NCBI GenBank assembly: GCA_964587045.1
Contig: CAZPJY010000002.1
Coordinates: 62,001 to 91,777 of the forward strand
Source of the DNA: an uncultured Methanosarcinales archaeon
Lineage (GTDB): Archaea; Nanobdellota; Nanobdellia; Woesearchaeales; CAZPJY01
Length of the DNA stretch: 29,777 nucleotides
Direction: 5' to 3'
Shown in pieces: positions 5,535 through 26,128 of the stretch. Every line of letters begins with the position of its first letter. Positions within the stretch are counted from its first letter, which is position 1. The position numbers and the translations under genes were made by a program. Below the pieces are notes generated by a model. That model worked only from the letters and a program-made list of their open reading frames with translations, did no database searches and was not told where the DNA came from.

Positions 5535-6299
5535 ATGGCACTGTACCTCATCGGGCTAGGACTGAATGACATCAAGGATATCAGCGTCAAGGGCATGGAG
5601 ACAGCCAGGAACTGCGACCGGATCTATTTCGAGAACTACACCGGGATATTTACCAACACACCCAAGGAGATAGGGCAATTCCTGGGAAAAGAGATAATTC
5701 CAGCAGACCGTACAATGGTTGAGCAGAAAGCTGAAGAGACCCTGCTCGCTGACGCAAAAGGCGGCGATACTGCCCTGCTGGTCATCGGCGATCCGCTCTC
5801 GGCGACCACGCATCAGGACCTCGTGGACAGGGCAAGGGAGCTCGGCATCAGTGTCGAGGTCATCCACAACGCCTCGATTTTCTCCGCAGTTGGGTTTACA
5901 GGCCTGCAGGTCTACAAGTTCGGAAAGACCACATCCATCCCATTCCCGCAAGGGGACTGGGAGCCCGAGACTCCGTACGATGTTCTGAAGGATAATAAGG
6001 CACTAGGCTACCACACCCTGTTCCTACTGGATGTCAGGGCTGAGGAGCACAGGTTCATGACCATACCAGAAGCTATAAAGGTCTTGGAGGACCTCGAGGC
6101 CAGGCGTCAGGAAGGCCTTTTTACCAAGGACACCTTCTGCGTTGGCTGCGCAAGGCTCGGGTCTGAAGAGCCCATAATCATCGCCGGCAATGCCGCAGAC
6201 CTGGCCAAGAAGGATTTCGGCATGCAGCCACACTGCCTGATTGTCCCGGGCGAGCTCCACTTTAAGGAGGAGGAAGCGTTAGCTCATTTCAAGATTTAG
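5535..6299 (+). CDS. dph5: Diphthine synthase
   Basis: LYLIGLGL, ENYT, GDPLSATTH, HNASI, GLQVYKFGKTTS, HTLFLLD, PHCLIVPGELHFKE. Confidence 0.96.
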   Translation: MALYLIGLGLNDIKDISVKGMETARNCDRIYFENYTGIFTNTPKEIGQFLGKEIIPADRTMVEQKAEETLLADAKGGDTALLVIGDPLSATTHQDLVDRARELGISVEVIHNASIFSAVGFTGLQVYKFGKTTSIPFPQGDWEPETPYDVLKDNKALGYHTLFLLDVRAEEHRFMTIPEAIKVLEDLEARRQEGLFTKDTFCVGCARLGSEEPIIIAGNAADLAKKDFGMQPHCLIVPGELHFKEEEALAHFKI

Positions 6300-6642
6300 G
6301 CACTACTAATCCTCTTCTCAATTTCTTATTAGTATATACCTTTAGAGGGGACAATACAACGAACACAAGGAACAACAGAAAAATCGAGAAAAAGAGGGGC
6401 TTTTGTCTCCCTTGCGGGATTGTTAGAGTGTATCCTGTCAAGCCCCCAGCCTTGAATGGAGGCTGGACATACTGAAAAGAGACATAATCCGTGTCTTTGA
6501 AGGCGAGAATGATAGAATCTTTATACTTGGAATACAAATCAGCATCGCATTGGCAGATTGTCTTCGAATCAGCATTGACAATCTGGATGCTTAGTAGTAT
6601 AAAGATAACCATGTACCAAAGCAAATTACCGCAATTCTCCAT
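6289..6642 (-). CDS. Small membrane-anchored hypothetical protein
   Basis: N-terminal signal-like hydrophobic stretch, C-terminal hydrophobic helix and basic tail. Overlaps the stop of the upstream surface protein gene. Confidence 0.55.
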   Translation of the reverse strand: MENCGNLLWYMVIFILLSIQIVNADSKTICQCDADLYSKYKDSIILAFKDTDYVSFQYVQPPFKAGGLTGYTLTIPQGRQKPLFFSIFLLFLVFVVLSPLKVYTNKKLRRGLVVPKS

Positions 6643-8872
6643 AGAAGATCACCATGTTCGATGCGCCCTTATAACTGGCTAATCTTTTTGGAACGCGTAT
6701 CTCATAATCATAGGTACCATATGATCCCACCCAATTATCATGAATCTTGGTTACGAGAATGATATCTTCCCTATCCAGGTCATCATAGGTGTTGTCCAAG
6801 CTGTCGCTCGAATCCCACAACAAACCTGATTTAAACGGACTGAATGTGGTGGAGTTACATATTGGGATGCCGGAAATATTTTCACCGAATATTGAGAACC
6901 AATCCTCATCAATTATATCTCCAAATTTTGTGAACATTGCATTTACCGAATCGTTGAATCCGTTCATACTGAGAGCTGAGTCTATCTCATTGAAATCCTC
7001 TATTGAGGGAGCAGTATCAGTCTTTTGACCGACTGGTACAAGTGAGTCCCAGCTTATGTTCGAATCTTTGTCTGCAATATAGATATTACCTCTCAGTGTA
7101 TCTTGCCATCTCATTAAGGACAGCTTGTCCTTATCATAAATACCGATCTCACCAGATATGTTTCCATAATACACCTGCCAGGATGAGATCCAGACTGATT
7201 TGCTGATGTAGTTGTTGCTTTCAATCCATTCCTGGATAGAGCCATTCTCCTCAATAGGCGGATCTACCTCAACAAGGATTGTCGAGAGACCCATGCCTGC
7301 AATCCAGGTTACATTCAGATTCTGATATGTGCCAGCTGCCAATGTAACAGTCAAATTTCTTAAACTTGTTTGGGTGGTTGTCTCCCAGAAACGGACCAAG
7401 ACCTCAGATGCATCAGCGTCCCCAATATTGGTAATATTTGCATATACGGCAACACTATCATTCTCGACAGGATTTGAATTGTTCAACCTGATATCATATA
7501 CTAGCATATCAGGGTATCGCCCTTCGATGTTGAAACCTGAATAGTCATAACTACCAGAGGATTTACTCGTATCATTAACCTTGAAAAAGACTGGGTACTG
7601 GGCTGAGTCATTCGTGTCAATACTGATGACATAGTTGAACAGGGCCGCCTCTCCACTCTTTATCTGGCCGCCTAGTGATAGATTCCACTCAATTTTCCCA
7701 TTTGAAAAGTTGCCTCCTGTGTAGTTGAGTGAATCTGCATCTGTATACCAGATTTCCTGAGAGGGATTCACACTCCAGTTAATATCAATACCTTCATGAT
7801 AGATGGAGTCGTTGACATCAATATTCCAAGAGATGCCGGTATTCAAAATATTGAACTCAATTCGGTATCTTCTCCCACTCTTTAGGTCAAATGTTGTATT
7901 GATTCCGAACTCGGTGACGTTAGAACGGTCATATATGCCTAAACCTGTTATATCATATATGGTAATATTTGTTAGGTTTGGCAGTGTATTCCCAGCTCCC
8001 CCTCCAAACGCGTCGAACGAGGTCACATTGAACCAAAAATGTGATGAGTTCTCCTGGAGATTATATTCTCCTGAATCTCTTATATCCCAATTGTTACATG
8101 AGATATTTATATAATCCCACGCTGTGCAGTGAAGAATGCTCTCGGGGAAATGGTTCATTTTTGGAAGTTTAACTTCAGCGTTGCTAAAACTAATCTCAGA
8201 GTCATTGATGTAAAATACCGACGAGATATCTTGGATTGCTGAAGGCTTGGAACCAGTATAATTCTCAATCAGTTGGTAACGCAGTGAGGAAGTATTCTGG
8301 AAGCTAAGATTTAATATCAAAACTGAGATGCTTCCATTAGAGGTCTGAGCATCAATTAACAAATTATAAAAATTATCTCCAAGGATTGAATAATTGCAAT
8401 ATGAAAAGTTGTTTAATGGTTCACTATCATCTTGAGCCATAATGGTCAGGTGGGTATCTTGCATAGTACCAGCAATATTTTCTGTTAATATCTTAGTATT
8501 TTGGTGGACTACAGCTGTTCCATTGACCGTATTATTTTCGCCCTGTTCATTGTTGCATCGCATCTCATAATTATAAGATCTTGTCTCAGAAAAAGTCCTC
8601 TCATACCAGAATAAACCAGCTGAATCGTTAATTGTCATATTGAAATAGTCCAGACGGTCAAATGATATCATGCACACCAAGTGGGTTATATTACTATGAT
8701 TTGATAGCCTGAGGTAGAATATGAGATTATCCCCAATAAATGAGGTAAGGTTGTCTGATGTGTCCCAGGTTTCAAAATTAGGGCCAAGAGCCACGCTGAT
8801 AGTACACATCGGTGATAGGAGGATGACTACCAGCGTGGCTAAACATTTGTATATTATACGTGAGGATAACAC
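6626..8872 (-). CDS. Secreted cell-surface glycoprotein with CARDB (Ig-like) domain
   Basis: Signal peptide, more than 30 N-x-S/T sequons, CARDB pattern (PDMLV...ANITNIG...VRF...VDP...E.NN), C-terminal WQVYYGN...YDYEIRVP...FYGELR domain resembling archaeal surface proteins. Confidence 0.8.
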   Translation of the reverse strand: MLSSRIIYKCLATLVVILLSPMCTISVALGPNFETWDTSDNLTSFIGDNLIFYLRLSNHSNITHLVCMISFDRLDYFNMTINDSAGLFWYERTFSETRSYNYEMRCNNEQGENNTVNGTAVVHQNTKILTENIAGTMQDTHLTIMAQDDSEPLNNFSYCNYSILGDNFYNLLIDAQTSNGSISVLILNLSFQNTSSLRYQLIENYTGSKPSAIQDISSVFYINDSEISFSNAEVKLPKMNHFPESILHCTAWDYINISCNNWDIRDSGEYNLQENSSHFWFNVTSFDAFGGGAGNTLPNLTNITIYDITGLGIYDRSNVTEFGINTTFDLKSGRRYRIEFNILNTGISWNIDVNDSIYHEGIDINWSVNPSQEIWYTDADSLNYTGGNFSNGKIEWNLSLGGQIKSGEAALFNYVISIDTNDSAQYPVFFKVNDTSKSSGSYDYSGFNIEGRYPDMLVYDIRLNNSNPVENDSVAVYANITNIGDADASEVLVRFWETTTQTSLRNLTVTLAAGTYQNLNVTWIAGMGLSTILVEVDPPIEENGSIQEWIESNNYISKSVWISSWQVYYGNISGEIGIYDKDKLSLMRWQDTLRGNIYIADKDSNISWDSLVPVGQKTDTAPSIEDFNEIDSALSMNGFNDSVNAMFTKFGDIIDEDWFSIFGENISGIPICNSTTFSPFKSGLLWDSSDSLDNTYDDLDREDIILVTKIHDNWVGSYGTYDYEIRVPKRLASYKGASNMVIFYGELR

Positions 8873-8951
8873 ATTCGCCTTGAGATATTTATAGAAAACT
8901 GATTTTTATTTGAGACGCATGATACTGGATAAATTTCTCTGGTATTTTATC

Positions 8952-9254
8952 CTAATAGTTATCTACGACATACACAAATATTGCCTTATCCTCGGAATCG
9001 ATGCGTTGGCAATTCACTTTGGTATTGAACTTTAGGTTTCTTCTCAAAAGTTTTGGAATCAGGAAATATTTTGTTGCTTCATTTTTGCCTCTGAGTGATA
9101 TTCTTGCTGGGACCTCCGCTACAGCATCGGAAAAGAGATGAATCTCGTTGAGATGTCCTTTGAGATTAAGAAATTCGCTGTTGTTGAGCAAAGTCTCCAC
9201 TACTACCTTTCGCTCATCTTGAGAATACCTTTTTGTGCTTAAAATTTTTCCCAT
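8952..9254 (-). CDS. Small conserved archaeal protein with AbrB-like swapped-hairpin C-terminal half
   Basis: RGKNEATKYFLIPKLLR...IFVYVVD resembles an AbrB/MazE hairpin. ATG at 9254 (MGKILS) is preferred over the AT-rich upstream ATG at 9344. Confidence 0.65.
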   Translation of the reverse strand: MGKILSTKRYSQDERKVVVETLLNNSEFLNLKGHLNEIHLFSDAVAEVPARISLRGKNEATKYFLIPKLLRRNLKFNTKVNCQRIDSEDKAIFVYVVDNY

Positions 9255-9421
9255 CTTTTTTTCCCTCGATATTTTCGGATGAAGATGCAAAAAATCTTCG
9301 ATTTTATCCAGAATGATTTTTAAGAATATATATTTTATCTGCATAATATAAGTATGTATGTATATTTTTCGAAATATATTTATATATCTTTTGCTTGATG
9401 TGAGTGATAATGAGATATTCG

Positions 9422-10333
9422 ATGAAAAGGAAGGTGGTTTTACATGGTCCTTCTACCTTGACCGTGTCATTACCCTCAGACTGGGTAAAAATTAATAGGA
9501 TTAAACGCGGGGATGATGTTATCGTCCAGGAGAAGGATAAGTCTCTGCTAATTTCCCCAACAAGCTTCCTGCCAAAGGGTTTGAGTGCGACGTTTTCTGT
9601 TGGCAACAACAGGCGTATAGGGCGATCTATGATAACAAGTTTCTACAGGAGTGGATATGATGAGGTAAGAATTGAATATAACCAAATTGAATTTATTGAG
9701 GATATACAACAAATCCTCTTCGAGGAAATATTTGGGTTTGAGATTGTCTCGCATACAAAAACAGAATGCGTCCTCAAAGATCTTTCTGGAGAGGGTATCC
9801 AAGCCTTCCACATTGTTCTAAGAAGGGTATGGTTCCTCCTGCTTGACCTGGCAACGGATTTGTTCAATGGTATAAAAAATAGGGACTCAAACCTATTGAA
9901 TACCATGTCTGTAAGGGAAAAGAGCATTAACCGTCTTACTAACTACTGTATTAGAACCATGATTAAACAGGGAGAGCATGATTATCATAAGTTGATGGTA
10001 TACTACCGTTTTGTTAGAAGTCTCGAAGAACTGGCAGATTGTTATAAGGATTTCTCACTGTACATTCTGAAACAAGCGGAAATCAAACCCTCACGTGTAA
10101 TATTGAGGTTGCTTAAGGGGACCAATGAACAACTAACGCTATTTCATAGCATCTTTTACAAGTATTATCCGGATGATGCAGAAAGGCTGAATAGGGAGAC
10201 CCAGTTGTTATACCAGCGGATGGTTCCCCTATTCAATTCTGGAATTGATGCTTACCAATTGCATTTCCTATTCACAATATGCAAGGGAATCAGGAACCTT
10301 ATATCGACCATTGTGGAACTACAGATTAAATGA
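9422..10333 (+). CDS. AbrB-domain PhoU-like phosphate uptake regulator (archaeal type)
   Basis: MKRKVVLHGPSTLTVSLPSDWV (AbrB N-terminus), YRSGYDE, GFEIV, followed by PhoU-like helical repeats (LEELAD). ATG at 9422. The ORF track extends it to 9404. Confidence 0.85.
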   Translation: MKRKVVLHGPSTLTVSLPSDWVKINRIKRGDDVIVQEKDKSLLISPTSFLPKGLSATFSVGNNRRIGRSMITSFYRSGYDEVRIEYNQIEFIEDIQQILFEEIFGFEIVSHTKTECVLKDLSGEGIQAFHIVLRRVWFLLLDLATDLFNGIKNRDSNLLNTMSVREKSINRLTNYCIRTMIKQGEHDYHKLMVYYRFVRSLEELADCYKDFSLYILKQAEIKPSRVILRLLKGTNEQLTLFHSIFYKYYPDDAERLNRETQLLYQRMVPLFNSGIDAYQLHFLFTICKGIRNLISTIVELQIK

Positions 10334-12286
10334 ACCCTGCAGGTTGTGGAATACAAGCGACAGGTAATCTATGTTGTTATCTTGCCTTGTTTTCTTGATA
10401 ATATCTAACCACCAGTTTAGAGATAGAAAATGGTATTGGATTTCACGATTTGTCAAGATGCTCTTATTGGTCTTTTCCTTGTCTTTCCATGCGTCGAGGT
10501 GATGGATCCAATTTATGTTTCTGTAAACAGCCTTCTCTTCATAAAAGTTCATCATTTCATTATACCTGAATTTTCCGACAAGAGTAATGATTGCTCTAGG
10601 ATTTACGCCCTTTAAGGCATTCACCGCATCCAATTCCTGGTTTTTCTCGAGTGCAAGGTATGCTAAAGGGATAAATCCTCTCTTTTCTAAAGGGATTCTC
10701 CACGCGTACGATTCTGAGAGTTCCAGTAATTCGTTCTGCTCGAAAATTAAATCTCCCAATCTCTCGAAATCAAAATGTATGAATGTATCCCGATCATTCA
10801 CTATCTCATTGAGATGTCCGAAGTAAGCCTCTTTGTTATTTAGAGCCGCAGAGAACACGGCCTCAACAGCGTCCTCAAGTTTCTCATGGTATTCGCTCGG
10901 TGATATAACCAAATTTCTCATCTGGTTCTTCGATTCCTGTATCCTTTCTAATCCATCGTTAAGGAGTTGGCTCCCTATCCTATTCTTTAGACTCCTTACA
11001 ATATATTCAACATCCACGTTGATATTACGAGGATGCCTGTCAACCTGCCTAATCAACTTCCCATTATAGCACCTTGAGGTCAGTTGTTCAATGGAAGCTG
11101 AGAGAAGGTCAGTGTCATATTTTATATTATACTTCGATAATATCTCTTCAACACGAGTATATGCCTTTGAGTAGTATTCCTGAGGTTTCGCTTGAAAATC
11201 ATAATAAGTATTGATAAGCTCGATTCTATCCTTTAGTCCACGAATTATTAGTGTATCTAAGAGAATATTCATCTCCGGTTGGATGGCAGCGAACCTCTTA
11301 TCATCCGTTATATTATGCAACTTTAACAGAAAATTGAAGAATTGAAGACCGGTAAATTCTTCAACTAATAATTTATCCTCTATTTTTATAACTTCGGATT
11401 TCCGGAGTGGAATCGAATTATAGGCTGAATATGCGATGTCGGCTTTCTCTTTTTCTTTAAACTTCTTTACCCAAAATACCCGCTTGAGCTTTTGCATCTG
11501 CTTCTTGTAATTTGCCGAATAAAGCTTCTCGGTAGATGCCCCTTCATACTCGAAGAGATAAGCGTTCTCCCTGAATTTATATACGCTCTGGTAAAACAGG
11601 TCAATATCTTCTTGGTTGTTAATAATTCTCCTTATGAAAGGGTTAAATCTCTGGATGTTATCTGTTATGCTGAAAAGAACATCCAGGTGCTGTGACGCGA
11701 TTTGGATTTGTTCATCCTCATAGCATAGCATTGTCAACATGAATAAGTCCTGAAGTGTGTTCGGACCCGATATTTGTATGGCGGCTTTTACTTTGTTTTT
11801 AAAAGAAAACAGCGTTGAGACGCCTTCATTTGTCCGATAGGGTTCAAGTTTGACGTCGAAGAACTGATCACCAATCCTATGGTGCCTCATCCATACTCCA
11901 TTCCCGAGGTTCAGCTGATGTGTAATATACTCTTTATTGTCTTTAAGTCCCAACGCTTTCAACGGGTCTTTAGAAAAGGTTTCCTGATCTAACTTAATAC
12001 CTAGCTCATCTTTGATATTGTTATACGATTCGAAGAAGGTTACATCCCCGAAATGCATTATTCCTCCCTTGGTAACGAACAGATTGCCCAAACCCCGGAT
12101 CTCATCTAATTTCTGGCGAAGATTACGATTCTCTTTTATGAGGGCCTCATTTGCGATGACTAGTTCTCGTTTCTCATCCTCCAATCGGGTTACTTCCCGG
12201 TTTCTAGGTTTGTGATTATTTATCCAATGTGCTAGATTTTTTCTCAAATTTTCCATTCTTTTCTTTCTTTTGGATATTTCTTGCAT
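10319..12286 (-). CDS. Hypothetical protein with N-terminal coiled coil and a cryptic protein-kinase-like (phosphotransferase) domain
   Basis: 655-aa ORF with FWVKKF, LLVEEF, DRHPRNI and HFDFE in kinase order. Confidence 0.6.
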   Translation of the reverse strand: MQEISKRKKRMENLRKNLAHWINNHKPRNREVTRLEDEKRELVIANEALIKENRNLRQKLDEIRGLGNLFVTKGGIMHFGDVTFFESYNNIKDELGIKLDQETFSKDPLKALGLKDNKEYITHQLNLGNGVWMRHHRIGDQFFDVKLEPYRTNEGVSTLFSFKNKVKAAIQISGPNTLQDLFMLTMLCYEDEQIQIASQHLDVLFSITDNIQRFNPFIRRIINNQEDIDLFYQSVYKFRENAYLFEYEGASTEKLYSANYKKQMQKLKRVFWVKKFKEKEKADIAYSAYNSIPLRKSEVIKIEDKLLVEEFTGLQFFNFLLKLHNITDDKRFAAIQPEMNILLDTLIIRGLKDRIELINTYYDFQAKPQEYYSKAYTRVEEILSKYNIKYDTDLLSASIEQLTSRCYNGKLIRQVDRHPRNINVDVEYIVRSLKNRIGSQLLNDGLERIQESKNQMRNLVISPSEYHEKLEDAVEAVFSAALNNKEAYFGHLNEIVNDRDTFIHFDFERLGDLIFEQNELLELSESYAWRIPLEKRGFIPLAYLALEKNQELDAVNALKGVNPRAIITLVGKFRYNEMMNFYEEKAVYRNINWIHHLDAWKDKEKTNKSILTNREIQYHFLSLNWWLDIIKKTRQDNNIDYLSLVFHNLQGSFNL

Positions 12287-12389
12287 TTTTTTATCCTAAT
12301 ATCCTCGTGAAAGTATTAAGTGTCAATATGATTTCATCAATTGGGGAAGTCTGGCTAGAACTTTCTCTAGATATTAAGGGGGTGAAAAA

Positions 12390-12566
12390 ATGAAGAAAGT
12401 AATAGTGGTAACTATGATAGTGGTTGCCTTGTTGGTGGGAGCCTTTGCTATTGGTGTAATAAGCTCGGACAGCGCTGAAGATGTTACATATGATATGTTT
12501 TTGAACAAAGAGTTTGTCACTCCAGTTCTCGCAATGGATCCTCCGGTCCCACCTTGCTGCACTTAA
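12390..12566 (+). CDS. Small secreted peptide precursor, 58 aa (MKKVIVVTMIVVALLVGAFAIGVISSDSAEDVTYDMFLNKEFVTPVLAMDPPVPPCCT), not in the ORF track
   Basis: Translated by hand. Strong archaeal RBS GGGGGTGA just upstream, classic MKK + hydrophobic signal peptide, fills the gap between two minus-strand genes. Confidence 0.8.
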   Translation: MKKVIVVTMIVVALLVGAFAIGVISSDSAEDVTYDMFLNKEFVTPVLAMDPPVPPCCT

Positions 12567-12573
12567 TATATTT

Positions 12574-14967
12574 TTAATTTCCATTTTTTTCCAACTGAGT
12601 GATATATGAAATACCTTGAAGTAGTGCATAATCAGCTAGAACATAAGTGCAACTTCTCAAAGTCTGATGATTGCTAAGGGGTATTTTTTTTATAAAATAT
12701 GGCTGGAAATCAATTCCGTCTTTTTTATCGACAATGTAATTATTTTCCATTAGAGAAATTAATGTTGCCTTGGCAAGGTTGAGATATTCATTGTGACCTG
12801 TCGCTTGAAAGAGCCTTCCAAAAGCCCAAAATGCAACGGCTGCTGCGCCGGGATCCATAATTCCCTCCTTCATATCCATAAAAGGTATCTTTGAGCTTGG
12901 TAGATGTGAGATGTAATAAGCCGTTGCCTGCTCTGCTCGATCCAGGTACCATGGCTTGTCTTGATTCATTGCATTTTCATAACCGGATAAAAGACCCAGT
13001 ACTGCAAGCATCTGCCCTCGTGCAAATCTTCCTTCCTGACCGTGCTGGGACTTTATGTAGCCTTTATTAAAGTCATAAATCTGCCTAATCAAGCCTTTTT
13101 CCTCCCCATCTGATTCGAAGAGCTTTTGGGAAAGTGTTCTATAATGGTTTTGGAGAATGGAGTACAACTCTTCTTTCCTGATGGGATTATCAGTCTTTTT
13201 ATATTCCCACCATAGTGGTTCGGTCAGATTCCAGAAATTGGCTGATGTAATCCTCTTATCGTCTATTTCATTACGAATGTCATCATAGGTTCTCTCGATT
13301 AAAACCCCTGGAGATTTATACAATGTTCTGATGAGGTCATCATTGATATCTGAAATTAACTCAAATGCGTTTTCATCATGAAGCATATCGAAGGCTGGAT
13401 GATATGCAAAATAGAATCTCGTAAGCTCTACTGTGACCTGTTTATCCCTAATGATACCATTTTTCCATCTTGTCGCCCAACGCATCCAGTCTGATCTTGA
13501 TTCTTGGGACGGTGCTTGCTCATAACCTTTCCAGACCATTCCCGCAAAGATGCCGTCGGTCCACTGCTTACCATGACCTTTGTATGCACTGACATTTGTT
13601 GTGACCCAAGGGTACTGGATTGGCTCGATTTTCTCCTCAAAAGAGAGCCAAGTTTTTAATCTGTCATATAGCGAATGCTCAAAATTGTGCAATGATAGGA
13701 TAAATCCTGTGTCATTGGGATAATCTTGCTTGTATGTTTGAATGAGCCTGTCACTATTCTTAATTACCTTATCTTTTTCCAAGTAAATTTGCTCGAAAGA
13801 AGGAGGTGGTGCTGTGTATTCTTGAACCAATATTCCGCCTCCGACAGCTACGCAAAGTGATACTAATGGTATGAGAATGGCCTTTCGAAGCCTCCTTTTC
13901 TTCAGAGTTTTCTCCCGATCCATACGTGCTTCCATGTCCCTGCTGATTTTTATTTTAACCCGTTTGTTCTCTAAGTAGGAAGAAAGGTCATTGATTGCCT
14001 CATTTGCGTTATGATACCTCATCTGGGGATTAATGTCTAGTAACTTTAAATTCGTCATTTCGAGCGTTGAGAGATCCTTGAGGTAAGGATTCAACTTTGA
14101 AGGTCGGGGGAAAGCTGACATTTCAATTATGTTGGAGATCTCAACTTCAAGCCTTTCATCAGAAGTGTATCTTATTATTGATTCAAGGTCTTTGAATTTG
14201 TCCGGATCCCTCCATTGATACTTTGCTATTAGGCTATGTAAAATTGGATGTTCTCCAGTGAGAAGTTCATAGAACATAATTCCGGATTGGTATAATTCTG
14301 CTGATATCTCCTCCTCAAGGGTGAGGTTCGTTTTGCCCATAATTATCTCAGGAGCAGTGTAAATGTGTTTCCCAACCAGTATCCGGCCTTCCTTTGCGGT
14401 CAGAGTCCTTAAGAAATCTCTGCTCTCTTTAACCAGGTCAAAATCGATAATTTTAATCGATTTATCCTTCGTGATGATTATATTCGAGGATGTCATATCC
14501 CTATGCACATACCCATTTTCATGGAGACTGCGTATGCCTTTCAGTATCTCAAGCATTATATTAGCGCTCTCAAGAACGGATTTCTCAAAGAATTCTTTAG
14601 TGATTTCAATTCCAGCAACTCTTTTCCCGACATGATTGAATGAAGGTCTCTTTTTTATCCAGGTCTCAAGGGATTCGCCCTCAACCAACTCCGAAATCTG
14701 ATAATAGAACCTGTCCCTCTCATTGAACTCATAAAGGGTGGCGAGGCGAGAGTCCATCTTTGTTGATTTGAATGCCTTCGGCAGCCCGGCAATAATTCTT
14801 TTATTCCTTGAAGATTCAAGGCTTTTCGGTATGATTTTTAGGGCCACCTCCCTACCCGGCACGGTTCGGTCCTCGGCCCGGAAAACCGCTCCGTACCCTC
14901 CTTTACCCAATAGCTCGATGAGCAGATACTTATCTATAGTCTCCCCGACGAAATCACCATAACCCAT
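12574..14967 (-). CDS. Transmembrane Ser/Thr protein kinase with extracellular GH88-like (alpha/alpha)6 barrel domain
   Basis: GKGGYGAV, VALK, HRDMTSSN, DFD, YTAPE, then KKRRLRK + one TM helix, then WTDGIFAGMVW, FARGQ, DPGAAAVA, ADYALLQG resembling unsaturated glucuronyl hydrolase motifs. Confidence 0.85.
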   Translation of the reverse strand: MGYGDFVGETIDKYLLIELLGKGGYGAVFRAEDRTVPGREVALKIIPKSLESSRNKRIIAGLPKAFKSTKMDSRLATLYEFNERDRFYYQISELVEGESLETWIKKRPSFNHVGKRVAGIEITKEFFEKSVLESANIMLEILKGIRSLHENGYVHRDMTSSNIIITKDKSIKIIDFDLVKESRDFLRTLTAKEGRILVGKHIYTAPEIIMGKTNLTLEEEISAELYQSGIMFYELLTGEHPILHSLIAKYQWRDPDKFKDLESIIRYTSDERLEVEISNIIEMSAFPRPSKLNPYLKDLSTLEMTNLKLLDINPQMRYHNANEAINDLSSYLENKRVKIKISRDMEARMDREKTLKKRRLRKAILIPLVSLCVAVGGGILVQEYTAPPPSFEQIYLEKDKVIKNSDRLIQTYKQDYPNDTGFILSLHNFEHSLYDRLKTWLSFEEKIEPIQYPWVTTNVSAYKGHGKQWTDGIFAGMVWKGYEQAPSQESRSDWMRWATRWKNGIIRDKQVTVELTRFYFAYHPAFDMLHDENAFELISDINDDLIRTLYKSPGVLIERTYDDIRNEIDDKRITSANFWNLTEPLWWEYKKTDNPIRKEELYSILQNHYRTLSQKLFESDGEEKGLIRQIYDFNKGYIKSQHGQEGRFARGQMLAVLGLLSGYENAMNQDKPWYLDRAEQATAYYISHLPSSKIPFMDMKEGIMDPGAAAVAFWAFGRLFQATGHNEYLNLAKATLISLMENNYIVDKKDGIDFQPYFIKKIPLSNHQTLRSCTYVLADYALLQGISYITQLEKNGN

Positions 14968-15093: not shown

Positions 15094-15166
15094 AGCCCCG
15101 TGGTGTAGCGGTCAATCATCCAGCCCTTTGGAGGCTGGGACCTCGGTTCGAATCCGAGCGGGGCTA
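15094..15166 (+). tRNA. tRNA-Gln (anticodon TTG), intronless, CCA not encoded
   Basis: Acceptor AGCCCCG/CGGGGCT + discriminator A, anticodon arm CAGCC-CTTTGGA-GGCTG, T-arm CTCGG-TTCGAAT-CCGAG. The A1-U72 pair is typical of archaeal tRNA-Gln. Confidence 0.97.
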
Positions 15167-19387: not shown

Positions 19388-20299
19388 TCACCTGCTCACA
19401 AGCTGCACCTGCTCCAGGGCTGGCCGGATTGTAGCGCTCGCGCCTGCGTTGAACCCGATGTAATCCTTTTCTATCCCGTCGCTGAATATGACGCCGTTCT
19501 CCGACATGTAGGACGTGACCAGCAAGGGCGTTTCAGGCTCGATGATGCCTCTGACCATGGAGCAGCCGGTCATCTTCGATGGCCACGGCTCGCGCACGAA
19601 GTATTCGAGCATCTTCTCGCTCCTGCCGAAGCGCGGGTTCGGGCATTCCTCCCCCACCATGCCGTATGCGCCTGCCAGTATTGAGGCCATCCAGGCTGTT
19701 GAGCCGGTGCCTGTCGAGACGATGATTCCGCTGGAGGAATGCCTCTCCCTCTCACCCTCAAGCTCGATTTGGTAATGCGCGCTGACGTGGGTCCTTTTGC
19801 CTATGAAGAGGTCATTCAATGCCAGCATCCTCTGCCCGTCGTCCAGCACCGCCTCGGCCATGGTCAACGCCTCTATCTCTGCAGCCCTGTCAGATACCCT
19901 ACCTATCACCTTCTGCAGCTGCTTGGGCTTACAGGTCGTGAAGACGTCCTCGAACCTGGACGGGTTGCTGTTGACGCATATGACTGGCTGTTGGCCTATG
20001 TACTTGGCCACGTTTACGAGCAGCCCGGGATCTCCTACCACGACCAGGATGTCATGCTGGCTGAACTGGTGGGTCGCGACGAGCGGCCTGCTGACGTTCT
20101 GCCTCTTGTAATCGCCTGGCAGCCTGGAAAGCACTTCCTTGAGGGTTGCGTGGTATTCCTGATGCCTGTCAAGGAAGTCTGAGAAGTCCTTGCCCCGGCT
20201 CTCTAGGTGGAAGCGGACCTGGGAGACAGTCGCGTGCTGGAGCAGCAGCTCCTCAAGTTCTGTCCTTTTGGTCACGACGACCAGGTTGTCGAGCTCCAA
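19388..20299 (-). CDS. ATP-NAD kinase-like protein (SPFH-associated subfamily)
   Basis: VVGDPGLLVNVAKY, ALNDLFIG, SSSGIIVSTGTGSTAW, VREPWPS, FSDG. RBS GAGGTGA overlaps the SPFH stop. Confidence 0.88.
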   Translation of the reverse strand: MELDNLVVVTKRTELEELLLQHATVSQVRFHLESRGKDFSDFLDRHQEYHATLKEVLSRLPGDYKRQNVSRPLVATHQFSQHDILVVVGDPGLLVNVAKYIGQQPVICVNSNPSRFEDVFTTCKPKQLQKVIGRVSDRAAEIEALTMAEAVLDDGQRMLALNDLFIGKRTHVSAHYQIELEGERERHSSSGIIVSTGTGSTAWMASILAGAYGMVGEECPNPRFGRSEKMLEYFVREPWPSKMTGCSMVRGIIEPETPLLVTSYMSENGVIFSDGIEKDYIGFNAGASATIRPALEQVQLVSR

Positions 20300-20305
20300 A
20301 GCAAC

Positions 20306-21172
20306 TCACCTCTTGGGGATTGAGGCCAGCAGCTCTGGGGTGATGGTCAGCGTCTCGATTTTTTGGGCGTTGCTCCCTAGAGTCAGAAGGGCGTAAGCCT
20401 TTAGCTGGTCGGCATCCCATCCCTTGAAGATATCGACTTCCATCTGTCTGACCTTGGCTTTCGAAGCGCCTTCGGCCTCGATGTTCTTGGCCTCGAGCTG
20501 AATTAGTTCCTCGCGCTTCTTCTCGAGGAAGATCCTGTTGTTAAGCTCGTTCTCCTTGATAGCTTTCTCCTGCTCGACACCGTCGGCCCTCCTCTCGTAT
20601 TGGGCCTTCTGCTGTTTCGTGAGCAGCTCCTCGCGGTAGGTCGCACCCAGCGCTGTGGCGATATCAGGCTCGGGCGTGATCTGGTTTACGTAGAGGTTGG
20701 CCACCTTAAGCCCCAGGTAGGTTACTGTCGGCGAGTCCAGCACCTCCCTTGAGACCTGCTGGGTCAGCACCTCGCTGCTCACAAGAATCGTCTCGAGGTC
20801 TGCCTTCTGCACGTATTTCCTCGCCGCCCCCCGGATGGCGTTTACCAGCGGCTCTGATATGTCTTTATATCCTGCTGTGGAAAACATCTTGGTCCTTGGG
20901 TCTATTGCGCAATTGAAGTTCTCCAGGACCTTCTCTGGGTCTTCGACGTGGTAGAGAAAGCTCCCCTGGATGGTTATCTCCTGGTTGTCCTTGGTCGTTT
21001 CCTTGAAGCTGTACTGCTTCTCTATGGTGCTCGTGTCGACTATCTCGACCGTTGTCCTGAATGGGGTGATGATTTTCGATATCCCCTTGCCCGATTTCCT
21101 GACCTTGCCGCCTGAAGTGATGCGGCAGAACTCTGTGGGCTCGCCTTTGAAGTAAACCCATGGCAGTCTCAT
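20306..21172 (-). CDS. SPFH/band 7 domain protein
   Basis: FKETTKDNQEITIQG...PE...I..ALG...RE.L...A.YERR..VEQE..IKENELN coiled coil. ATG at 21172 is preceded by GGAGG (the ORF track uses TTG at 21187). Confidence 0.9.
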   Translation of the reverse strand: MRLPWVYFKGEPTEFCRITSGGKVRKSGKGISKIITPFRTTVEIVDTSTIEKQYSFKETTKDNQEITIQGSFLYHVEDPEKVLENFNCAIDPRTKMFSTAGYKDISEPLVNAIRGAARKYVQKADLETILVSSEVLTQQVSREVLDSPTVTYLGLKVANLYVNQITPEPDIATALGATYREELLTKQQKAQYERRADGVEQEKAIKENELNNRIFLEKKREELIQLEAKNIEAEGASKAKVRQMEVDIFKGWDADQLKAYALLTLGSNAQKIETLTITPELLASIPKR

Positions 21173-21202
21173 TTTCTCATCCTCCAAGATGAAAAGACCA
21201 TC

Positions 21203-24683: not shown

Positions 24684-25061
24684 TTAATTCTTCTTGATAT
24701 TCTTGAAGGTCTCCACCAGGTCAATGATATACTTGCCTTCTGAGACCCTGATGATGAGCGGCTCCTTCTTGAACAGGTTCACCAAGTCCAGCTCGTACTT
24801 GCCGGGCTTGAGTATGCGAACCGCCTCGAACTCCAGGACTATCGACTTGTCCCTGTCTATTTGGTTGCCGATGATGTCGTAGACGTCCTCCTCAATCTCC
24901 TTCTTCTCCTTCTTGGTGAGCTTGGAGACCTCCTCCTGGACCTCTTTGAGCCTCTCTGGCTTGATGAAGAAGAAGAGCTTACCGCCGCAGCTACATCCCT
25001 TCAGAATCTCCTGCGCCCCGTCATCATAGAGCTTGTTGCATCTGACACATTGGTGCGGCAT
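24684..25061 (-). CDS. oapC: Origin-associated protein C (DUF2072 Zn-ribbon)
   Basis: MPHQCVRC...ILKGCSCGGKLFFF, VRILKPGKYELDL, GKYIIDL. Third gene of the conserved triplet. Confidence 0.9.
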   Translation of the reverse strand: MPHQCVRCNKLYDDGAQEILKGCSCGGKLFFFIKPERLKEVQEEVSKLTKKEKKEIEEDVYDIIGNQIDRDKSIVLEFEAVRILKPGKYELDLVNLFKKEPLIIRVSEGKYIIDLVETFKNIKKN

Positions 25062-25077
25062 TCGTACACCCCAAAAA

Positions 25078-25467
25078 CTAGCGCTTCCGTCTCCTCTTCG
25101 TCATGTCATCGATGAAGAGCTGGACCTTGTTGGGATCGCTCTTGATCTCCTTGACGAGGGTGGAAGGGCCTATGATCGTGAATCCCCGCCTGTCCCCCAG
25201 CAGGAACTTGAGCAGTCCTCCCTTGATCTTCTCCCAAAGCGCACTGCTTCCGCTCTGCGGGTTGAAGACCCAGGGCTCTATACCCTTGAACTTGTTGTTG
25301 ATCTCCTCCATGGTCTTCTTGATGAGCTCTGTCTCCTCTGTTTTGGTGAGGCGGCCTTCGAGGAGGACGATTTTGTTCTCCTTGACGATGTCGATTATCT
25401 TCCTTATCCTCTTCTGCGAGGGCAGCTTCTCAATCTCGAAGTATGGCAGGAACTGGAGAGTTATCAT
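25078..25467 (-). CDS. oapB: Origin-associated protein B (DUF2073)
   Basis: RIRKIIDIVKENKIVLLEGRLT..EE..LI..TM.EI...FKGIE, GFTIIGP. Confidence 0.9.
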   Translation of the reverse strand: MITLQFLPYFEIEKLPSQKRIRKIIDIVKENKIVLLEGRLTKTEETELIKKTMEEINNKFKGIEPWVFNPQSGSSALWEKIKGGLLKFLLGDRRGFTIIGPSTLVKEIKSDPNKVQLFIDDMTKRRRKR

Positions 25468-26102
25468 TTTGCGATCTTGAACAGTGCTTCATAAAACTTG
25501 TCGATGTCCGTTCCGTACTTGGCCGATATGCCCACGACGTCATACTGCGGGAACGCGGCCTTGATCTTCTTGATGTCGGACTTCTTCAGGTCCACCTTGT
25601 TTGCGACCAGGAGCACGGGTATGTCCCTGGCCTGAAGGTTGCCTATGATGGTTATGTTGACTTGGGAGTACGGATCCTTGGTCGAGTCGAGCACGACTAT
25701 CACCACATCCATGTCGTCCAGCCACTTGATGGCGTCGATTACGCCCTTGGTGGCCTCCTTCGCCCGGTCTTTGGCCTGCTTCTCCTTCATGCCGGCCTTA
25801 ATGAAGTCCTCGTAGTCGATCTTCGTCGCAATGCCTGGTGTGTCGACCAGGTTGAAGGAGAGCTCCTTGTTGCCGCTCTTGATGTTGATCTGCTCCTTTA
25901 TCTGGATCTCCCTGGTCTCGTGCGCGATGCTCGAGGTAGAACCCATGACATCTTCCTCTCCGAGCCAGTCCTTGCAGATTTTGTTGGCGAGAGTGGTCTT
26001 TCCGCCGTTCGGCGGGCCGTAGAGGCCCATCTTGATGTGTCTGCTCTTCTTGAATAGGTTCTTGAAGAACTTCTGGATAAACCTGTTGAACAGCCCTTTC
26101 AT
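25464..26102 (-). CDS. oapA: Origin-associated protein A, Era-like GTPase
   Basis: G1 GPPNGGKT, HETRE, G3 DTPG, RAKEATKG, DPYSQVN, G4 NKVD, ISA. ATG at 26102 (ORF track 26120). Confidence 0.92.
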   Translation of the reverse strand: MKGLFNRFIQKFFKNLFKKSRHIKMGLYGPPNGGKTTLANKICKDWLGEEDVMGSTSSIAHETREIQIKEQINIKSGNKELSFNLVDTPGIATKIDYEDFIKAGMKEKQAKDRAKEATKGVIDAIKWLDDMDVVIVVLDSTKDPYSQVNITIIGNLQARDIPVLLVANKVDLKKSDIKKIKAAFPQYDVVGISAKYGTDIDKFYEALFKIAK

Positions 26103-26128
26103 AGGTTTTTCAAAGAACAAAGCAGTAT

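Follow-up and report, generated by a model that had tools for sequence, protein, structure and literature searches.

A Ser/Thr-type kinase fused to a GH88-derived barrel and paired with a predicted exported peptide is a candidate peptide receptor of Woesearchaeota-type archaea

We analysed a 29,777-nucleotide stretch of DNA (hereafter the window) from a 1.6-Mb archaeal genome, G000 (G000:C2:62001-91777), which carries a small gene cassette organized around a predicted membrane kinase. The kinase gene, on the minus strand (12574..14967), encodes P0001, a receptor-type protein of 797 amino acids (aa) in which a Hanks kinase is followed by a basic cluster with a hydrophobic span, a helical hairpin and a GH88-derived barrel. 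Tail to tail with it on the plus strand lies an open reading frame (ORF) for a 58-aa predicted exported pro-peptide (12390..12566), and the same strand encodes an AbrB/MazE–PhoU regulator (9404..10333), a predicted transcription factor that Pfam and locus comparison identify as the constant neighbour of the kinase family. We consider it probable that the kinase–barrel protein serves as the receptor of this putative exported peptide and signals to the AbrB–PhoU regulator.

The kinase domain of P0001 spans approximately aa 14-335 (13963..14928, minus strand; Pfam) and matched PF00069 Pkinase above the cut-off (E=3e-30), and the best NCBIfam match of the kinase part was of the PASTA-kinase type (PknB/PrkC/StkP; E=3e-31, 109 bits against a cut-off of 450). 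A first-pass annotation, made from the sequence alone, had described Hanks motifs and a KKRRLRK cluster before one transmembrane (TM) helix, and every motif that it quoted was found: GKGGYG at residue 21, VALK at 41, HRDMTSSN at 155, DFD at 175, APE at 205 and KKRRLRK at 356. The predicted helix, aa 363-381 (13825..13881, minus strand; hydropathy), is the single hydrophobic segment of the protein (Kyte–Doolittle (KD) value 2.5) and would place the N terminus inside and the C terminus outside the cell. P0001 has the fold, VAIK Lys (K44), HRD Asp (D157), catalytic-loop Asn (N162) and Mg-binding Asp (D175) of Hanks-type kinases and also keeps APE. The HRDMTSSN and DFD variants are atypical, as had been noted: the αC Glu is replaced by G61, the catalytic-loop Lys by T159, the Gly of DFG by D177 and the subdomain IX Asp by E224, and the first three of these positions are nearly invariant in the relatives. 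Because of these four substitutions at conserved positions the activity of the P0001 kinase is uncertain, and it may be low or absent.

The predicted ectodomain, aa 390-797 (12577..13800, minus strand; model and alignment), consists of a two-helix hairpin and an (α/α)6 GH88-like barrel. A Pfam scan matched no family to this C-terminal domain, but a phmmer search of the PDB with P0001 returned the GH88 protein 3wiw at E=9.7e-5 and the Bacillus unsaturated glucuronyl hydrolase (UGL) at E=0.012-0.015, and ESM Atlas features assigned the barrel to GH88 at 0.94. An AlphaFold model (predicted local distance difference test (pLDDT) 83.6) superposed on 3wiw with Z 39.5 and a root-mean-square deviation of 2.5 Å over 348 residues and on UGL (1vd5) with Z 38.6, with GH105 behind at Z 31.5; Foldseek agreed. 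Among the matches listed in this ranking GH88 came first by a wide margin, which leaves room for similarity to a family outside the list, such as LanC-type cyclase barrels; a viral fold search returned distant barrels only. The alignment used for folding included GH88 proteins, so the phmmer match to the PDB is the independent part of this evidence. In the model, the C-terminal domain is confirmed as a GH88-type barrel, as the first-pass annotation had proposed from the segments YPWVTT (residue 452), WTDGIF (469), VELTRF (513), ITSANFWNL (573), FARGQM (648), DPGAAAVA (705) and ADYALLQG (778).

We compared the pocket with that of UGL, for which parts of PMC4528949 name Asp149, His193, Asp88, Phe46 and Trp42 as functional residues. 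UGL numbering was counted from the phmmer alignment to P0001. In all alignments made, Asp149 corresponds to Ala576 in P0001, whereas Asp88 falls on Leu515 in the family register, on Glu514 or Thr516 in pairwise HMMER alignments and on Thr512 in one MAFFT run. The first-pass annotation had read the segments of the two catalytic Asp residues as VELTRF and ITSANFWNL; Asp149 is indeed replaced, and the Asp88 site holds no Asp, but an acid, Glu514, lies at most one residue away depending on the register. We further considered Trp134, Gln211, Trp219, Arg221 and Trp225, to which we presume roles in UGL, taking the tryptophans to be sugar-stacking or sugar-contact residues. P0001 replaces W134 by Y561, W219 by F648 and W225 by L654, carries the family-specific R517 and retains W469, R650, D705 and D779.

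These changes extend across the family. In a census of 39 family barrels and 160 ordinary GH88 proteins, D88 was present in 4/39 versus 154/160, H87 in 1/39 versus 151/160, W134 in 0/39 versus 140/160, H193 in 1/39 versus 136/160, Q211 in 2/39 versus 152/160, W219 in 1/39 versus 159/160 and W225 in 0/39 versus 158/160. Retention was higher for D149 (25/39 versus 159/160), W42 (27/39 versus 160/160), R221 (35/39 versus 160/160) and the two structural Asp residues (37/39 in the family); both catalytic acids aligned in two of the 39 family barrels, both of them divergent rows. New residues recur as well: an Arg directly follows the D88 site in 34/39 family barrels and 6/160 ordinary GH88 proteins, position 225 is Arg or Lys in 28/39 and 1/160, and a family Cys occurs in 87% of family barrels. 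By these sequence comparisons the pocket is remodelled rather than merely eroded, and the new Arg residues probably point into it.

Word-based searches with P0001 detected no relative of the barrel. An exhaustive HMMER search with the barrel sequence gave 70 proteins, of which ten are kinase–span–barrel fusions of 635-661 aa; further members were drawn from genomes and metagenomes, and P0010, P0017 and P0052 were placed in the family by tree and inspection. A search of 401 genomes of the order gave 10 family barrels among the matches listed, G498 excluded, and 46 weaker matches besides. With a G474 member reached separately through a neighbouring gene, the family occurs in at least about 11 of the 401 genomes. 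In a phylum sample of 401 genomes seven matched, all from one class, and a species-genome scan with one short pattern, which can miss members, yielded four fusions, all archaeal, and no kinase in any of 41 bacterial matches. The named records with the closest gene type are 'Candidatus Woesearchaeota' and archaeon GW2011_AR20, which makes a DPANN host of Woesearchaeota type probable. The kinase–barrel fusion is a rare Woesearchaeota-type family, and the Pkinase–TM–GH88 architecture is not unique to this genome. Several candidates were rejected: the G498 match is an ordinary secreted GH88 protein with a further domain and was dropped from the count, as was the G157 match, an unrelated protein, and G631 and G535 encode kinases with different C termini. 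The G498 protein (L181:2117-4378) has intact GH88 motifs and a fused glycosidase-like domain; its 4.4-kb contig, placed in an archaeal bin, is possibly misbinned.

Two subtypes can be distinguished. Members with an activation segment occur in G000, G005, G016, G594, G659, G626, G014 and G474, and the larger subtype lacks the glycine loop and the activation segment and keeps the four catalytic residues (Lys, Asp, Asn and Asp). Of the 36 family rows in the tree, 34 grouped together inside GH88 (SH-aLRT 91), plus two family fragments; G016 and G474 fell elsewhere on long branches, and the P0001 barrel also has a long branch. A single origin of the family barrels is likely from these sequences. 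Individual loci vary: G594 (L177:8278-11516) encodes a span-less fusion in the same orientation as the regulator, with a peptide precursor that contains an Ig-like domain; G016 (L018:8017-13614) encodes a 1104-aa variant whose operon also contains an HD-GYP gene and a cyclase-like gene; and the kinase–barrel gene of G521 (L176:8150-10140) and the partner gene of G659 (L179:4448-5868) are each split in two frames. Most short-kinase members (for example, L021, L023 and L073) have an RRxFL Tat-like motif before the anchor. TatC was not found in any of ten relatives with RRxFL (genomes 71-96% complete), and an internal Tat signal was therefore rejected; TatC is present in G000, whose kinase is without RRxFL.

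The window peptide gene has a GGGGGTG ribosome site, and 7 bp separate its stop codon from that of the kinase gene; a public source also annotates it as a gene. Its product comprises a hydrophobic N terminus, a linker, the residues VLA and a Pro/Cys tail, MDPPVPPCCT. Downstream sequence was available for 24 distinct loci, and in 23 of them a convergent small ORF ends at -26 to +60 bp relative to the stop of the kinase gene; 22 of these ORFs have a hydrophobic N terminus, export being judged by hydropathy alone. Eighteen peptides match C-x2-4-P-x1-2-P-x2-3-C and a nineteenth (L176) has the pattern with a longer tail, the typical core being CxxxPGYPNPC; in G626 the same peptide lies at a contig edge, the cassette being split across contigs. 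As controls we used genes with at least 300 bp of downstream sequence. Hydrophobic convergent ORFs followed 5 of 97 ordinary GH88 genes, none with the motif, and none of 17 other Woesearchaeota kinase genes had either. The core is conserved as protein, since identical residues were encoded by different codons 464 times and by identical codons 383 times (18 genes). Public pipelines call family peptide ORFs as hypothetical genes and Pfam has no family for them; a core profile matched two of 181 class genomes, both from the training set, and none of the other 179. In many precursors a V-x-A site directly precedes the core, and the linker varies in length and sequence while the C-terminal core is conserved.

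The peptides also co-vary with the barrels. With two partial rows set aside, core similarity correlated with barrel identity at r=0.51 (n=18), and at the 13 loci with all three genes Mantel tests gave r=0.52 for core and barrel and r=0.23 for core and regulator (partial r=0.51, p=0.023, a value that overstates the effect because the loci are related and the set is small). The four off-pattern peptides, from G000, G590, G014 and G474, are paired with four of the most divergent barrels.

Of the 24 loci, 19 have an AbrB–PhoU gene within about 3 kb of the kinase gene, the gene order taking three forms, and in G594 the regulator gene is directly upstream in the same operon. Of the remaining five loci, three break off within about 410 bp of the kinase stop codon, and no regulator match was obtained in the roughly 1 kb available for L068 or in 19 kb of G016. 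A conserved promoter element upstream of the window peptide gene (12291..12319, plus strand) consists of TTATCC-N9-CG and then a TATA-like box; it is a candidate site for the regulator. The element was present before 13 of the 22 peptide genes (mean after shuffling 0.14, maximum 3), with TTATCC often repeated at 20 bp. A stricter pattern has three non-coding matches in G000, at the peptide gene, at a CARDB gene of the same low-GC island and at one unrelated site. The CARDB gene (6626..8872, minus strand; Pfam) encodes a sequon-rich surface protein (39 sequons versus 13.6 expected), its motif copy lies at 8905-8932, 60 bp upstream, and in G005 a CARDB homologue immediately precedes the kinase gene on its upstream side. 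The surface protein is a possible regulated output.

Taken together, the arrangement leads us to lean, with some reserve, towards a self-contained peptide quorum-sensing or kin-recognition circuit of DPANN archaea: an autoinduced, disulfide-looped pheromone, a single-pass Ser/Thr kinase with a glycosidase-barrel peptide receptor, lineage-specific peptide–barrel pairs and an AbrB–PhoU output. The pro-peptide would be exported and trimmed, in many members after V-x-A, to its Pro-rich tail, which in most relatives would close into a Cys–Cys loop. The tail could then dock inside the barrel, in a pocket that now has Arg in place of Asp88 and the tryptophans, and occupancy of the pocket would change the state of the cytoplasmic kinase; in G000 the relay may run through a 655-aa, perhaps APH-like neighbour. 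The regulator would in turn act on TTATCC promoters, including that of the peptide itself, creating a quorum-sensing-like feedback loop, and in G000 perhaps also on the CARDB surface-protein gene.

Several observations weigh against this interpretation. Sequons are not enriched in the family barrels (94 seen versus 102.8 expected), leaving the outside location unsupported; anchors of the short-kinase subtype are mostly weakly hydrophobic (KD 0.8-1.5); and the outside placement of the barrel is a prediction with no independent support. G594 keeps the peptide and regulator although its fusion has no hydrophobic span, and G016 has no adjacent peptide gene beside its HD-GYP and cyclase-like genes. 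The promoter motif is missing from 9 of 22 peptide genes, and in five relatives no wider regulon was found, other matches to the pattern being no commoner than those to a reversed-pattern control. D149 is retained in many relatives, the P0001 kinase is substituted at four conserved positions, the Cys residues of the window peptide are not spaced as in the family, and the Mantel result, itself small, was obtained from related loci. Several precursors have an extra 50-80 aa and no V-x-A before the core, which a tethered stalk would fit equally well. The sequences show the architecture, the substitutions, the gene pairing, the promoter motif and the co-variation; the fold, the membrane span and the export signal are predictions, and processing, binding, kinase switching, control by the regulator and feedback are putative steps.

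The strongest alternative, a tethered plug, we regard as unlikely. Here the small protein would stay anchored in the membrane as an accessory subunit with its Cys/Pro tail filling the barrel, and the input would be displacement, proteolysis or disulfide state (envelope, redox or host contact) rather than cell density. Gene pairing and co-variation are accounted for equally by such a plug, and some precursors have no obvious A-x-A site or have long β-rich or Ig-like linkers. Against it, many members carry V-x-A before the core, the peptide gene runs opposite to the kinase gene under a conserved promoter of its own, and a freely varying linker with a conserved core is also a feature of Phr pro-peptides in the parts of PMC11343458 that describe them.

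The first-pass annotation had proposed a non-catalytic barrel that binds glycans or peptides, possibly recognizing host surface glycans. A catalytically degenerate, kinase-fused sensor barrel is what we see, and the peptide-binding option fits better; host-glycan recognition is no longer the leading idea, because W134, W219 and W225 are lost family-wide and a peptide gene is paired in 23 of 24 loci. In its general form, with the barrel binding an external anionic glycan (an unsaturated uronate disaccharide or a host surface sugar) and the peptide merely a regulated output, a glycan sensor seems to us improbable. It would agree with the retention of R221, W42 and often D149, with the more basic pocket and with the signalling role of unsaturated disaccharides for Bacteroides sensors described in part of PMC9067506. 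The loss of three sugar-contact Trp residues, H193 and Q211 across the family speaks against it, as do the lack of another GH88 gene in G000 and of lyase or sugar-uptake genes beside the loci read, and it leaves unexplained why cores track barrels more closely than regulators.

That the barrel is still an enzyme, either a residual glycosidase or hydratase or one that modifies the small-ORF product by analogy with the kinase–cyclase fusions of class III/IV lanthipeptide synthetases, is in our view very improbable. LanKC and LanL have a lyase–kinase–cyclase architecture, which a kinase with an (α/α)6 barrel beside a small Cys-containing precursor resembles. Weak NCBIfam matches were to LanL/LanKC (kinase part only) and to LanM on P0004 511-603 (E=0.002), and D149 and the family Cys are widely kept. 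Yet the lyase domain is absent, the kinase beginning near residue 14, and a hydrophobic span parts the domains; the barrel is of GH88 type, Ser or Thr lies between the Cys residues in only 3 of 19 cores, the precursors open with export-type hydrophobic segments, and P0001 is without Asp149 in a family in which the two acids hardly ever align together. Least probable of all is that the G000 copy is a decaying, horizontally acquired remnant of a family that otherwise signals, since its low-GC island at a tRNA gene, long barrel branch, four kinase-motif substitutions and off-pattern peptide are set against intact genes throughout, a kept promoter motif and ribosome site, four remaining core catalytic residues and a DFD shared with the G474 kinase, whose gene order is identical.

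Returning to the peptide-receptor interpretation, we compared the cassette with known systems. It resembles GH88 unsaturated glucuronyl hydrolases (1vd5, the Bacillus GL1 UGL, and 3wiw, which is heparin-specific) in fold, W42, R221 and the DSSA and GDY motifs, and its barrels nest inside the GH88 tree; it differs from them in the family-wide loss of Asp88, His193, Trp134, Trp219, Trp225 and Gln211, in the loss of Asp149 in P0001, and in the extra helical hairpin and kinase fusion of that protein. Like PknB, PrkC and StkP, P0001 has a kinase–TM–ectodomain order, but PASTA repeats were absent from its Pfam, NCBIfam and structure matches, and most relatives have the shortened kinase. ComCDE and agr systems encode a small exported precursor beside a membrane histidine-kinase receptor and a response regulator, and in Rap–Phr/RRNPP systems a cytoplasmic TPR receptor binds a peptide that has been re-imported. 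With these and with Rap–Phr/RRNPP systems the cassette shares a small predicted exported precursor with a conserved C-terminal core encoded beside the putative receptor, apparent co-divergence and a nearby regulator. Unlike them, it has a Ser/Thr-type kinase with a glycosidase-derived domain, an AbrB–PhoU output, an archaeal host and a predicted disulfide loop; a Pfam scan of the 30 window ORFs matched neither a histidine kinase nor a response regulator, and Pfam and NCBIfam matched no TPR in the cassette proteins, the 655-aa neighbour being without a family match.

Plant receptor-like kinases offer a further parallel: CLV3–CLV1 is a peptide–receptor kinase pair, and tobacco CHRK1 has a GH18 ectodomain that has lost its catalytic Glu. 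They share with the cassette, as we predict it, a single-pass Ser/Thr kinase, a secreted peptide ligand and a glycosidase-fold ectodomain, and differ in that here the kinase is N-terminal (the reverse order), the ectodomain is unrelated, the candidate ligand gene is adjacent and convergent, and the regulator is prokaryotic. Plant GH18–kinase sequences number 91 in the portion of PMC5485988 that reports them. In the features compared, the cassette falls outside GH88 hydrolases, PASTA kinases, ComCDE/agr, RRNPP and lanthipeptide synthetases; by analogy it most likely works like a peptide-pheromone system. The logic of exported peptide and membrane kinase is known elsewhere, and the parts used here fit no known family tested.

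We found no description of a kinase–GH88 fusion or of an archaeal peptide–receptor-kinase pair in the literature, supplementary tables and most subscription journals being outside the scope of the search. The DPANN literature found does not mention 'GH88', although PMC7567580 or DPANN protein-family tables could list such proteins. PMC7567580 surveyed CPR and DPANN for homologues of known quorum-sensing systems, and its passages on the subject report no native peptide–receptor pair in DPANN. The cassette brings a candidate ligand, receptor, regulator and promoter together in one small unit that can be probed without culturing. If our interpretation is correct, a glycosidase fold has been reused as a peptide receptor, host-dependent nano-archaea would count or recognize kin through a new kind of archaeal cell-to-cell signalling, and this would parallel plant peptide–receptor-kinase signalling with unrelated parts. 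It would also correct public pipeline labels of 'Glycosyl hydrolase family 88' on family proteins (for example, AJF63146.1 of AR20, whose cognate peptide is AJF63145.1), which inflate the sugar-degrading potential of these genomes.

Between the kinase and the regulator genes of the window lies the gene for the 655-aa protein (10319..12286, minus strand), which has no family match. Homologues adjoin the kinase gene in G005, G659, G690 and G474 and the peptide and regulator genes in G626, and a profile matched seven of 401 genomes: five from the training set, the new cassette carrier G626 and one weak match. A model of a homologue (pLDDT 50) matched 3csv (Z 8.4, 174 residues aligned), 6yxs (Z 7.8, 228) and 6hwj (Z 7.0, 173), all in the background range, Foldseek with it gave nothing at E<=0.001, and profile comparisons of the family gave no match. 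The protein is at most weakly APH- or choline-kinase-like. In G000, four of the seven full-length AbrB–PhoU paralogues have a kinase-like gene no more than two genes away, recognized by motif only in two cases. Two tandem kinase–span–ectodomain genes are tail to tail with one paralogue (G000:C15:35173-39357), and kinase-like genes with APH-type motifs, judged by eye, adjoin two others (G000:C45:2167-5111 and C5:15947-19790). This arrangement suggests that AbrB–PhoU regulators are general kinase outputs in the lineage.

Divergent from the regulator gene is a gene for a small conserved 130-aa protein (8952..9344, minus strand). It is not specific to the cassette: 34 of 151 genomes from the order carry it, and elsewhere it is often directly upstream of a KaiC-like ATPase gene with V4R-like and radical-SAM-like genes nearby (L217-L236; from sequence starts). 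Genomes marked unpublished are in the denominators of this count (G492 and G484 are among the 34) and of the 401-genome order search and possibly in the 17-kinase control (G478, G583 and G533); none is among the cited family members.

The island genes (6289-14967) have a GC content of 35-43% and a GC content at third codon positions (GC3) of 0.40-0.47, compared with a GC3 of 0.70-0.75 in flanking genes and 53.4% GC in the genome, and the island is bordered by tRNA-Gln(TTG) (15094..15166, plus strand). This composition and the tRNA gene at the island end suggest horizontal acquisition; no att repeat longer than 11 bp was found at the island. DNA contigs of three runs contained scattered identical pieces, including most of the peptide gene, and no cassette-spanning contig, and PADLOC returned generic kinase matches only. 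Near the G119 cassette we noted a protein judged from sequence to be of RHS-repeat type (L017:4247-6703). Elsewhere in the window, the Pfam scan identified Dph5, OapB/OapC, FtsZ and Elp3 genes. An SPFH/Band 7 gene is followed by a 303-aa gene without a Pfam match that appears NAD-kinase-like by eye (19388-21187), and consecutive OapC, OapB and GTPase genes (24684-26120) form an archaeal origin-associated cluster.

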